A DNA stretch of 64,000 nucleotides from Promethearchaeati archaeon SRVP18_Atabeyarchaeia-1 (GTDB taxonomy: Archaea > Asgardarchaeota > Atabeyarchaeia > Atabeyarchaeales > Atabeyarchaeaceae), in contig CP147779.1 in NCBI GenBank assembly GCA_037308085.1, forward strand, positions 928,001 to 992,000, given 5' to 3'. Within the stretch, counting starts at the first letter, position 1. Each line of letters starts with the position of its first letter. Below the pieces are notes generated by a model. It did no database searches and was not told the DNA's origin. It saw only the letters and a program-made list of their open reading frames with translations. Both the position numbers and the translations under genes were made by a program. This document shows, piece by piece, positions 21,615 through 24,601 of the stretch.

Positions 21615-22176
21615 GCTCTCCAGAACCAAGGTTTGCGAGAGCAACTCCCAGTAGTTTGTGAAGGTAGGGTCATACGGTGGATTCTTTTTTTGGACCGGCA
21701 ACCCTTCACTATTTTTTAAGACCCTGCTGACTAAGATGACCCCATAGGTAAATATGACTTTGATTGAAGTTTAGCGGTTCGAGATCCGATAACGGGTTTA
21801 TGCAAGTCCCGTCGTTTTACCCTTTCCTCTACGCATGGATTCCTCTACTCTTCGACTTCGCATCTAGACCATCCTAAATCGCGCTGGATGCGCGATTAAC
21901 GCGCTTACAAAGTGTTCAGGGGTCCGCGATTTCCTGCTGCAGCCAAGAAATCAATAGCATTAGGAACGTCACGAATAACTCTTTTGCAAGTAAAGAAATT
22001 GTGATAGTCCGCACCAATTATCTGAGCCGAGATACTCTCTTAGATTTGTCAACTTGGTTATTACGCGAGTTACAAAAGAGTAAAGGCCAGCATACCAAAA
22101 AGCAGACTGGGCGCGTGTTTCGAAGCAAATCTCTTCGATGTCGATAATATCGCTTTTCCCAGAGCTTACAAATAAG

Positions 22177-22200
22177 GGTCCTGTTACCTCTTCGGTTGGT
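22177..22200 (+). repeat. Left terminal inverted repeat
   Basis: GGTCCTGTTACCTCTTCGGTTGGT. Confidence 0.8.
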
Positions 22201-22234
22201 GAGTTTAAATAAGAGCTTTGGGTTGTCTAGTTTT

Positions 22235-23458
22235 ATGCAGGCAGCTAAAGCGGTGCAAATACCGTACGAGCCCAAAAGTTGCGTTCTCAGCCTCCTCGAA
22301 ACCTTCAGAGATATGGTTAACTATTGTATCCAAGTTGGCCTAGAGAGGAATATGGCCTCAAGGTTCAGGCTACAAAGTGAGGTATACCACCAGCTAAGCC
22401 GTTTCGGACTCCACACCTGGTACACCCTCTCAGCCGTCGAGGTTGCCTGTGCTATTTTGAAGAACTACCGGAAAGCGAAGAGAAAGCGGCAGGACGTTAG
22501 GGTGCCGAGAGCCACGAAACTCACGGCTAAACTGGGAAATCAGGGTTATAGAGTTGTTGAAGGCGAACTGAGAATACCGATCAAGCCAAGAGAGTTCTTC
22601 TACGTCCCCTTGCACAAGAGGGCAGCGCAGTTCCTATCGGACGCCACGCTCAAGTTAGGCTCAATAACCTTGACTAGCACGGTTTCAGTGGTCTTCTCGA
22701 AGACCGCTGAGGTCACCGAACCGAGAAGCTATGTGGCGTACGACACGAATGAACGCTCAATAGATGGAGCCTACGTAAACGATGAGGCGGAACTGACTGT
22801 TGAAAGCCATGATTTATCGAGGGTTTCCGAGGTTAGGCACGGGTACTTTGAGCGAGTGCGGAGGACTCAAGCCAAGTACGCGAGAGATAGGCGGGTGGCA
22901 CGGAAAATCCAGAGGAAGTGGTTCGCCAACCAGAACAACAAGGTCAACACGATCTTGCATCAGGTGAGTTCAGCGATAGTTGGAAAAGCGAAAACCAGGG
23001 AGCACGGTATTATCCTCGAAGACCTTAAATATATTCGCAGGGCAATTAACAGAAGAATCTTGGGCGTCAACAGCTTCAACGGGAAAATTCAGAAGATAAG
23101 TAAGCACTCTAAGAAACTTAAGCGAAGACTGAACTCATGGAGCTTCCGCAAGCTGCAAACCTTCATTGAATACAAGGCATTGTGGACGGAAGTCAAAGTA
23201 GTCAAGGTGAACCCTTGGAATACTTCTGGGGTCTGTGCGGTGTGTGGGTGCGTTATGCGAGACCCGAAAGCGAAAACCCTGGAATGCTGCGGGATAGGCC
23301 GCCACGTAAATGCCTGCTTGAACATGCTGAAAGCCCAAGATGAAAGCCTGCGGTTCAGGCTGGATCGCTCCGCACATGTAGCCGTGATTAGTCCCCTAAG
23401 CAAGGCTATGAGCCAAAGCGGAGAAGTTAACCCAAACGGTTATCAAGCGCAGAGGTAA
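22235..23458 (+). CDS. tnpB: TnpB-family RNA-guided endonuclease (RuvC-III D to H)
   Basis: RuvC-I AYDTN, RuvC-II ILEDL, W.F.KLQ.FIEYKA, VNP.NTS..C..CG, GRHVNACLN; TTTAAATA box 24 nt before ATG (leaderless). Confidence 0.92.
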   Translation: MQAAKAVQIPYEPKSCVLSLLETFRDMVNYCIQVGLERNMASRFRLQSEVYHQLSRFGLHTWYTLSAVEVACAILKNYRKAKRKRQDVRVPRATKLTAKLGNQGYRVVEGELRIPIKPREFFYVPLHKRAAQFLSDATLKLGSITLTSTVSVVFSKTAEVTEPRSYVAYDTNERSIDGAYVNDEAELTVESHDLSRVSEVRHGYFERVRRTQAKYARDRRVARKIQRKWFANQNNKVNTILHQVSSAIVGKAKTREHGIILEDLKYIRRAINRRILGVNSFNGKIQKISKHSKKLKRRLNSWSFRKLQTFIEYKALWTEVKVVKVNPWNTSGVCAVCGCVMRDPKAKTLECCGIGRHVNACLNMLKAQDESLRFRLDRSAHVAVISPLSKAMSQSGEVNPNGYQAQR

Positions 23459-23485
23459 CAGAACCTAAATAGGTATTAACCACTA
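23340..23485 (+). ncRNA. Putative omegaRNA (scaffold overlapping the tnpB 3' end, guide from the right flank)
   Basis: Stems AGCCTG/CAGGCT, CTCCGC/GCGGAG, TAGCC/GGCTA, TAACC/GGTTA in the non-conserved tail after RuvC-III; position typical of TnpB omegaRNA. Confidence 0.5.
23442..23465 (-). repeat. Right terminal inverted repeat (contains the tnpB stop codon)
   Basis: Reverse complement GGTTCTGTTACCTCTGCGCTTGAT. Confidence 0.8.
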
Positions 23486-23536
23486 CTTTCCTACATCGCC
23501 GCTACGTTTGGATGCACAGAGAGAGGCGACCTCGCA

Positions 23537-24601
23537 TTGTACATAGGGATGCCACGGAAATATGCGTATCTAAATGCGAAGATCAGGGCATTGATATCTA
23601 AGATGCTTAGTGCAGGAGACTACGAGAAGATCCTCCAATCCGACACGTTCGAGGAAAGCGCTAGGCTGCTGAGCACAACGGTCACTGGTGGCGAACTTGT
23701 TGAGGCGCTCACCAGACCGCAGGTAGACCTGTTTGAAGTTGACCAGGCCCTCTCCAACATCTATGCAAAGTCATTCAAAATGATATGCGAATATGCACCC
23801 AAGCAAGCTAGGCTTTTCCTAGCGACTTACTACAGCAAGATAGATGTGGACGCCCTCAAGACGATAATTCGCGCAGTGCACAGCGGAATACCGAAGGATG
23901 AGGCACTAAGATATGTTATAACGACTTCCGAGAAGAAGCGGAACGAGTATTCGAAACTCTCCGAGTCACAGTCCGTGGCTCAACTGGTGGAAGAGGTTCA
24001 AGATAGAGTCCTGAGGCAAGCAGCGATAAACGCGCTTCCTCTATACGAGTCCACCCATTCGAGCGTTCCCTTGGAGGCATCCCTCGACAGGACACTTTAC
24101 AGTCTGTTATGGGAACAGATCATCAAACTCCGTTCGATAGACAGAACCCATGCAAAGAGCTTGGTTGGGGCGAGAATAGACCTGACCAACATGCTAATCG
24201 CTTTGAGGTCTCGAGAGCTGAACTTTGGTCCGAGTGTGTTGGAACTTGTCACGATACCAGTCAGCTACAAGTTGAAGCTCAGCATGGATGACATAGCAAA
24301 AACACGCACCGCGGGAGAGTTGCTAAACATCTTCTCAGGCACCGCATACAGGGAAGTGGCTCAACAGGCACGGGAACTATTTGAGAAGGAGCCCGACCTG
24401 ACTCAGATAGAGAGCCTGGCGGACCGCTACATTGCCCACCAGAGTTTCCGAGAGTTTGCTGGCTACTCATTCCATGTCGGTATTGCCTTAGCATACCTAA
24501 ACCTTAAATTCTATGAGTTACGTAACATCAAGGCGTCAATAATAGGAAAATATGAGAAAATCCCCGCGCAGAGAATCCGTAACGTACTAATATTCTTCTA
24601 A
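23537..24601 (+). CDS. atpC: A/V-type ATP synthase subunit C (d)
   Basis: YAYLNAKIRA..SKML, IDLTN...LR, YL..KFYELRNIK. Confidence 0.88.
   Translation: MYIGMPRKYAYLNAKIRALISKMLSAGDYEKILQSDTFEESARLLSTTVTGGELVEALTRPQVDLFEVDQALSNIYAKSFKMICEYAPKQARLFLATYYSKIDVDALKTIIRAVHSGIPKDEALRYVITTSEKKRNEYSKLSESQSVAQLVEEVQDRVLRQAAINALPLYESTHSSVPLEASLDRTLYSLLWEQIIKLRSIDRTHAKSLVGARIDLTNMLIALRSRELNFGPSVLELVTIPVSYKLKLSMDDIAKTRTAGELLNIFSGTAYREVAQQARELFEKEPDLTQIESLADRYIAHQSFREFAGYSFHVGIALAYLNLKFYELRNIKASIIGKYEKIPAQRIRNVLIFF

Follow-up and report, generated by a model that had tools for sequence, protein, structure and literature searches.

A tnpB gene with an omegaRNA-like scaffold in a probable non-autonomous IS6-like element of an Atabeyarchaeia genome

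TnpB is the ancestor of Cas12, and its accepted role, the restoration of a transposon after scarless excision, has been worked out for the IS200/IS605 and IS607 families. According to a 2026 review (PMC13565253), this role explains why obligate mobile element-guided activity (OMEGA) systems are seldom linked to DDE transposases; the DDE partners that it names are ISL2, IS630 and IS1031, and in its view such linkage is rare since homing is of little use to cut-and-paste elements. In the part of the paper covered here, Altae-Tran et al. 2023 (PNAS; PMC10691335) described six DDE-associated TnpB branches (DDE-1 to DDE-6) with inverted ends, and solo TnpBs whose ends are nearly identical to those of transposase-bearing elements, implying movement in trans. 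The same part describes the guide of IS200/IS605 omegaRNAs as being read from the flank of the right end. For IS26, a copy-in cointegrate route with an 8-bp duplication was described by Harmer and Hall 2019 (PMC6807381), who noted that this mechanism is established for IS26 and a few relatives only and questioned whether the archaeal branch is part of the IS6/IS26 family at all. We describe here a tnpB-carrying element in a stretch of 64,000 nucleotides (the window, genome positions 928001-992000) from the genome of SRVP18_Atabeyarchaeia-1, which is a single contig of 2.81 Mb. The element lies at window positions 22177-23465, and we interpret it as a non-autonomous archaeal IS6-like (DDE) element that carries tnpB and an omegaRNA-like scaffold and operates by the mechanism proposed below, a reading to which we assign a probability of about 0.8.

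The element is 1.29 kb in length and its cargo consists of tnpB and the guide-RNA scaffold only. It is delimited by the following features, given in window coordinates.

22177..22200, plus strand: left terminal inverted repeat (TIR), IS6-like (GGTCCTGTTACC...), a family boundary; the transposase-bearing element at genome 614149-618567 has the same ends
23442..23465, minus strand: right TIR, boundary of the repeat family
22169..22176, no strand: left copy of the target site duplication (TSD), CAAATAAG, mutated at two positions, defined by flank comparison and the empty site
23466..23473, no strand: right copy of the TSD, TAAATAGG, which matches the empty site of the sister genome exactly

The first-pass annotation, made from the sequence letters, had claimed 24-bp TIRs, an 8-bp target duplication and no transposase inside, and all of these claims held. 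Direct comparison of the left end with the reverse complement of the right end reproduced the 20 identical positions out of 24, and tnpB is the sole long open reading frame (ORF) between the ends. The flanking octamers match at six of eight positions, and nine of the approximately 11 copies in the genome carry such duplications. An empty site, which the first-pass annotation had proposed to look for in relatives, was found in the sister genome of the same class, Candidatus Atabeyarchaeum deiterrae Atabeyarchaeia-2 (G001), where the orthologous position is unoccupied and the octamer TAAATAGG occurs once, preceded by AGAGCTTA and followed by TAACAATC. The single octamer demonstrates that the duplication is real and that the left copy was mutated at two positions afterwards. 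Metagenome contigs from four wetland and sediment runs yielded no joint that skips the element, as these contigs end within the repeat; loose contig ends at 23465/23467 were assigned to other copies or other genomes. With four mismatches between its TIRs and two between its duplications, the window copy is old and may have stopped moving.

The element belongs to a family of approximately 11 copies in the genome, about 80% identical to one another, in which the alignable part begins and stops exactly at the inverted repeats. When the copies were oriented by tnpB, nine of the 11 had 8-bp flanking repeats matching at six to eight positions, three of them perfectly. The two copies that lack a flanking duplication are internally deleted, as expected from recombination between copies. 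A genome-wide scan placed close matches to the terminal 24-mer almost exclusively at element ends, and the consensus of the family TIR is GGTTCTGTTACCTCTGCGGTTG(A/G)T. Agreement of this extent greatly exceeds what chance would produce. One copy, c7, has a different TIR core that is changed at both ends, so that the ends co-vary. A second tnpB family of 1.26 kb, designated x, has 38% protein identity to the window family and is bounded by perfect duplications. Beyond this genome, 72 distant TnpB loci were compared, and in about 30 of them a 1.2-1.5 kb element with tnpB only is enclosed by IS6-like ends and 8-bp duplications; these loci are found in Bathyarchaeia, in Nitrososphaerota (including Nitrosotalea and Nitrosopumilaceae) and in another Asgard genome. 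The alignment of homologue flanks suggested by the first-pass annotation thus recovered the TIRs and TSDs in the window genome, in two relatives of the class and in the distant loci, and the homologous copies end at the inverted repeats rather than elsewhere.

These data bear on the possibility that the locus is an ordinary tnpB-only element of the IS200/IS605 type (IS1341 group), moved by a Y1 TnpA, with coincidental TIRs and flanking repeats. The genome does have three Y1 genes and about 40 TnpB genes, some of which adjoin each other. However, elements of that type have neither TIRs nor TSDs and are linked to Y1 transposases, whereas TIRs beginning with GG and 8-bp duplications are present at every intact copy and in the distant relatives, and the empty site proves that the duplication is genuine. 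Linkage to a Y1 or serine transposase, which the first-pass annotation had named as fatal to its proposal, was seen at none of the copies; the three Y1 genes lie elsewhere, beside other TnpBs. As far as sequence analysis allows, an IS200/IS605 origin is refuted, and we regard it as having a negligible chance of being correct. The approximately 40 TnpB-type genes of the genome fall into several families, only some of which adjoin Y1 transposases (near 478195, 1573364 and 1955413).

No transposase is encoded within 22177-23465, and the first-pass annotation had proposed that tnpB is moved in trans by an IS6-type DDE transposase with matching ends encoded elsewhere. PF13610, the model of the IS6/IS240-type DDE transposases, matched two places in the genome above the cut-off, and both transposase genes sit between ends of the matching type in elements with 8-bp duplications:

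genome 614149-618567: transposase-bearing element of 4.4 kb, TSD TGAAAAAA/TGAAAAAC, with 24-bp ends identical to the consensus of the tnpB family
genome 549276-555829: transposase-bearing element of 6.5 kb, TSD TGGAGAAC (perfect), with ends of the type of the second tnpB family, x

The best NCBIfam model for both transposases is transpos_IS6, slightly below its cut-off, and the DDE residues are invariant in the transposase alignment. The element at 549276-555829 encodes a full-length transposase of 383 aa (genome 549899-551047) with an N-terminal SWIM domain and zinc ribbon. The absence of a transposase inside the window element and its presence on elements with the same ends indicate that the window element is a non-autonomous relative and not an insertion sequence (IS) in its own right. 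The window tnpB is thus bounded by TIRs shared with elements that encode a DDE transposase, as in DDE-associated TnpBs. Furthermore, the genomes with TIR-bounded tnpB (G000, G001, G002 and G115) all have an IS6-type transposase, and no match to such a transposase was found in G005 and G113, which have no tnpB with these ends. The matching-ended elements and the lack of Y1 or serine linkage support the proposal of the first-pass annotation, and the sequence comparisons give good support to trans-mobilisation by an IS6-like DDE transposase.

Of 80 metagenomic loci that encode close relatives of these transposases, 28 had clear ends and duplications. These 28 transposase-bearing ‘transporter’ elements measure 2.2-4.4 kb and carry variable passenger ORFs; none of the 28 carries tnpB, so no two-gene element with both transposase and tnpB was recovered among them. 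The relatives (L151-L230, for example L166 and L182) have long ends of about 45 nt with a second, subterminal copy of the repeat core. The passengers of the element at 614149-618567 include a winged-helix regulator and ORFs that belong to no known family; that at 549276-555829 carries a 995-aa type IIG restriction-modification enzyme, and a further TnpB-like ORF lies directly outside its right end, near 556653-556793.

We then considered the cargo, beginning with the protein.

22235..23458, plus strand: tnpB ORF, 407 aa from ATG; the stop codon (23456-23458) lies inside the right TIR

The product was identified as TnpB by PF07282 (4.3e-13, above the cut-off) and by the NCBIfam models guided_TnpB and TIGR01766, and its PDB matches are TnpB and Cas12f chains. 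It has the C-terminal zinc-ribbon (TNB) domain and the split RuvC that are typical of TnpB, with the RuvC-I Asp (YDTNE) and the RuvC-II Glu (ILEDL) in place. The canonical D-E-D triad is incomplete, since RuvC-III reads G-R-H in the window copy in place of the usual D-R-D. The [D/N/G]-R-H form is kept across the whole sub-clade of the window copy, including Bathyarchaeia, and the sister clade retains D-R-D. Among intact copies, conservation is 88% at the first two codon positions versus 70% at the third, a contrast that indicates purifying selection on the protein. In the window family the second Cys pair of the zinc finger is an adjacent Cys-Cys (E-C-C-G; window 23270-23300, residues ~334-352), and Bathyarchaeia members of the same TnpB clade retain CxxC.

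The second part of the cargo is an RNA scaffold at the 3’ end of the gene.

23339..23459, plus strand: omegaRNA-like structured region that overlaps the 3’ end of tnpB and uses the core of the right TIR in its last stem
23466..23485, plus strand: predicted guide template, comprising the duplication and about 12 nt of the right flank, proposed by analogy

The scaffold was folded as a consensus structure over the last 160 nt of the copies in a gap-free alignment. Its 32 pairs are formed in 96% of cells, compared to 34-50% when the partners were slid, and six pairs have compensatory changes. Two stems swap CC/GG for GG/CC or UA/UA for CG/CG between subsets of copies, with amino acid changes in each arm as a result. 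From invariant G-U pairs, the scaffold RNA is assigned to the tnpB-sense strand, and conservation at third codon positions climbs to 0.83 over the last 40 codons of tnpB. In the last stem the core of the right TIR is paired with the sequence directly upstream; where the core differs (in c7 and in relatives from G002), the upstream arm differs correspondingly. Across the 37 tnpB elements with confirmed TIRs and TSDs, the tip is exactly GGTTCTG at 30 right ends versus 12 left ends; the tips of the transposase-bearing relatives are alike, at 21 and 22 of 28. By sequence, the region has the properties of an omegaRNA scaffold, in that it is structured, extends across the 3’ part of tnpB and stops at the right boundary, and this evidence fits an omegaRNA whose guide is taken from the right flank. 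An Rfam search of the scaffold returned no family match, and nothing significant was found in the transposase-bearing elements with an nhmmer profile from a loose alignment plus a motif scan, which constitutes a weak negative.

Further support for the scaffold came from miniature inverted-repeat transposable elements (MITEs) with the same ends, located outside the window.

G000:C1 673143-673403, 868840-869096, 2198749-2199010 and 763237-763617: MITEs of 257-381 bp

This set retains only the last ~135-270 nt of x-type tnpB elements, with compensatory changes in the stems, and those of 257-262 bp consist of the ends plus the last ~135 nt (the scaffold) and little besides. The MITEs are scaffold-only satellites, which would require both the transposase and TnpB in trans.

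We further analyzed the sequence outside the duplications, where a short motif adjoins the left end.

22165..22168, plus strand: CTTA, candidate target-adjacent motif (TAM) and target-site motif, directly outside the left copy of the duplication

Read in the orientation of tnpB, the motif is YTTA in the window family and YTTG in the x family. Among the 37 tnpB elements, TT(A/G) occupies the left position in 22 and the mirrored right position in four; T is found at position -3 in 30 and at position -2 in 32, with nothing comparable on the right side. When TTA, TTG and ATG are counted together, the motif lies on the side of the left end in 25 of the 37 and on the right in six (p about 9e-4), although some metagenomic loci may be orthologous insertions, so that the motif counts somewhat overstate independence. 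The last base, A or G, tracks the clade on the TnpB tree even where the repeat core is the same. In the empty site the motif immediately precedes the octamer and the right flank. A guide that begins with the duplicated octamer requires the TAM to lie at exactly this position; that the first eight guide nucleotides would be the duplicated target fits both the RNA structure and the flanking motif.

The motif was also scored in a comparison set of 31 transposase-bearing elements without tnpB (the 28 metagenomic elements and three genomic ones). In these it was found on the left of the transposase gene in nine and on the right in 13, and one element type of this set bears it on either side; the distribution differs from that of the tnpB elements (Fisher p = 0.004). 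An initial reading of the motif as a signal of TnpB alone was dropped, as the same motif lies beside these transposase-bearing elements. Its presence there indicates that it is primarily a target preference of the transposon clade and by itself no proof of TnpB action; what points to TnpB is only that tnpB elements have it in a fixed orientation. At position -8 outside the duplication, A predominates on either side (23 and 20 of the 37 tnpB elements), and this symmetric enrichment, unlike the one-sided T-T-purine motif, probably reflects the transposase’s own target preference.

The motif data raise the idea that TAM-bound TnpB recruits the DDE transpososome and so directs oriented integration beside the TAM, in a manner analogous to CRISPR-associated transposons but independent of the guide. 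The motif lies immediately next to the staggered cut, it is strictly oriented in tnpB elements, and its last base differs between two TnpB clades despite the same TIR core, all of which such recruitment would accommodate. However, the tnpB-less transposase elements share the motif (though TnpB could act in trans), and selection after insertion is the simpler account of the orientation bias. We therefore consider recruitment by TnpB very improbable.

The mechanism that we propose for the non-autonomous element is as follows. The element moves, or moved, in trans via an IS6-type transposase, probably following the replicative copy-in pathway described for IS26, and the transposition machinery would insert it adjacent to a T-T-purine motif. 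Elements with tnpB would persist only when the motif adjoins the left end, where it could serve as the TAM for a guide transcribed from the right flank; the TAM-proximal portion of this guide would consist of the duplicated 8 bp. An empty site (TAM, 8 bp and right flank) would be recognised by the TnpB-omegaRNA complex, unlike the occupied site, which would escape because the full target there follows the transposon tip and not the motif, while the left copy would match the guide for only 8 nt. By cutting uninterrupted or reverted alleles, TnpB would then help the element to be retained or to home. TnpB activity, guide layout and biological role are what we infer from these comparisons.

Several observations weigh against this interpretation. 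The catalytic Asp of RuvC-III is replaced by His and the window copy has also lost the preceding Asp (GRH), so that nuclease activity of the window TnpB is assumed. There is no sign of recent movement, in that six of the 11 copies have decayed into pseudogenes and divergence is about 20% in all of them. The transposase of the element at 614149-618567 is missing 126 N-terminal residues (SWIM and zinc ribbon) that all relatives possess, which leaves one full-length transposase in the genome, the ends of which differ at a few core positions. TTG, TTA or ATG lies on exactly one side of 22 of the 31 tnpB-less elements, against a background of 5.7%. Finally, IS6-type replicative transposition leaves no excised donor and hence no empty donor site (PMC6807381), and what such an element gains from a homing nuclease is harder to see than for IS200/IS605. 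With the exception of the truncated transposase and its differing partner, these observations would also be in line with an IS6-like transposase that moves the element while TnpB is passive or exapted (nuclease-dead or regulatory, like the TldR repressors) and the motif is a transposase preference rather than a TAM. A passive TnpB is less readily reconciled with the orientation bias, which is confined to tnpB elements, with the purifying selection on the protein and the covariation of the scaffold, or with the extra constraint on the right tip and the scaffold kept by the MITEs. The Asp-to-His change is moreover clade-wide, and a conserved change of this kind at RuvC-III has been reported as a ‘RuvC-III rearranged’ class that is thought to be active, in the part of PMC10691335 covered here. 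We consider a passive TnpB unlikely, yet clearly more plausible than recruitment of the transpososome.

Extended from the window element to its relatives, the proposed mechanism would describe a widespread archaeal TnpB-omegaRNA clade residing in replicating IS6-like transposons that insert at T-T-purine motifs with an 8-bp stagger, in which the motif is the TAM, the duplicated 8 bp are the guide seed, and TnpB drives homing into, or elimination of, empty or reverted alleles. We put this full generalisation forward tentatively, as somewhat short of an even chance.

The remaining features of the locus concern its expression and its neighbours.

22204..22211, plus strand: TTTAAATA, candidate archaeal TATA box, ~24 nt before the tnpB ATG and conserved in the left ends of the c family

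Based on the archaeal promoter consensus, TTTAAATA is a possible promoter, possibly with a leaderless transcript. The element, with its TAAATAGG duplication, sits 71 nt upstream of the gene for A/V-ATPase subunit C (AC39), with which it is co-oriented, and ahead of the gene for the proteolipid subunit (window 23466-24601). Read-out from tnpB or the omegaRNA would enter the leader of the A/V-ATPase operon, and the predicted guide spans the former promoter region of that operon.

We searched the literature for a text naming an IS6-like TnpB partner or a layout of motif, duplication and element, and recovered none in the literature covered. A whole-word search for TnpB with IS6 recovered unrelated papers on resistance plasmids only, and the paper on Atabeyarchaeia mobile elements mentions neither TnpB nor IS6.

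The findings suggest that a large archaeal group (Asgard, Bathyarchaeia and Nitrososphaerota) keeps tnpB and its scaffold under selection in IS6-like DDE elements that duplicate 8 bp and probably replicate without excision. In such a group the contribution of a guide-RNA nuclease to a transposon of this kind can be studied in a natural setting, with a testable geometry of TAM, duplicated 8 bp and flank, and a three-way split of function among transposase-only, tnpB-only and scaffold-only elements. It is also a source of compact TnpBs with a His-type RuvC-III and simple candidate TAMs (YTTA/YTTG). If the proposal is true, OMEGA function would not be bound to scarless ‘peel-and-paste’ transposition, TnpB would act for a type of transposon that never leaves an excised donor, and MITEs with the omegaRNA only would take advantage, in trans, of TnpB as well as of the transposase.

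Among described systems, the DDE-linked TnpBs of Altae-Tran et al. (PMC10691335) are closely similar, in that tnpB lies inside a TIR transposon with its 3’ end less than 250 bp from the transposon end. That paper already reports TnpBs carried by DDE transposons and solo copies mobilised in trans, and the general idea is thus less novel than the first-pass annotation had assumed. The present element differs in three respects from what is described in the part of that paper covered here: the published partners are IS630, ISL2 and IS1031 whereas the partner here is IS6-like; the published TnpBs usually have a transposase in cis whereas no element here has both genes; and a variable 8-bp duplication between motif and element is not described in that part. 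What the present locus adds is the IS6-like transposon partner and the guide layout with the duplication inside the guide, neither of which is named in the literature covered.

The element resembles the archaeal IS6/IS26 branch in its ends, which begin GG..CTGTT, in its 8-bp TSD, in the length of the archaeal TIR consensus (18 bp or more) and in the match of the related DDE transposases to PF13610 and the NCBIfam IS6 model. It differs in that the window element has no transposase, and in that the related transposases have an added N-terminal SWIM domain and zinc ribbon and reside in passenger-bearing elements of 2.2-6.5 kb and not in ISs of 0.8 kb. With the IS1341 group of IS200/IS605 it shares a tnpB-only cargo, a scaffold that extends over the 3’ end of the gene to the right boundary and a short T-rich motif at the left; those elements have no TIRs or TSDs, however, and are moved by Y1 (HUH) transposases, and their TAM abuts the left end whereas eight duplicated bases intervene here. 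MITEs and palindrome-associated transposable elements (PATEs) likewise move in trans via shared ends, and the 257-262 bp derivatives keep these ends; the MITEs in this genome differ in retaining the omegaRNA scaffold as their only internal conserved part. The Fanzors carried in DDE transposons (Bao and Jurka 2013, PMC3627910) provide a eukaryotic parallel, being nucleases of the TnpB family that travel as cargo of DDE-mobilised transposons with TIRs and TSDs. Fanzors are, however, eukaryotic or viral and belong to other transposon superfamilies, and their short fixed TSDs (TA, TTAA) are said to be part of the TAM (PMC13565253), whereas the duplicated 8 bp of the Atabeyarchaeia element would be part of the guide.

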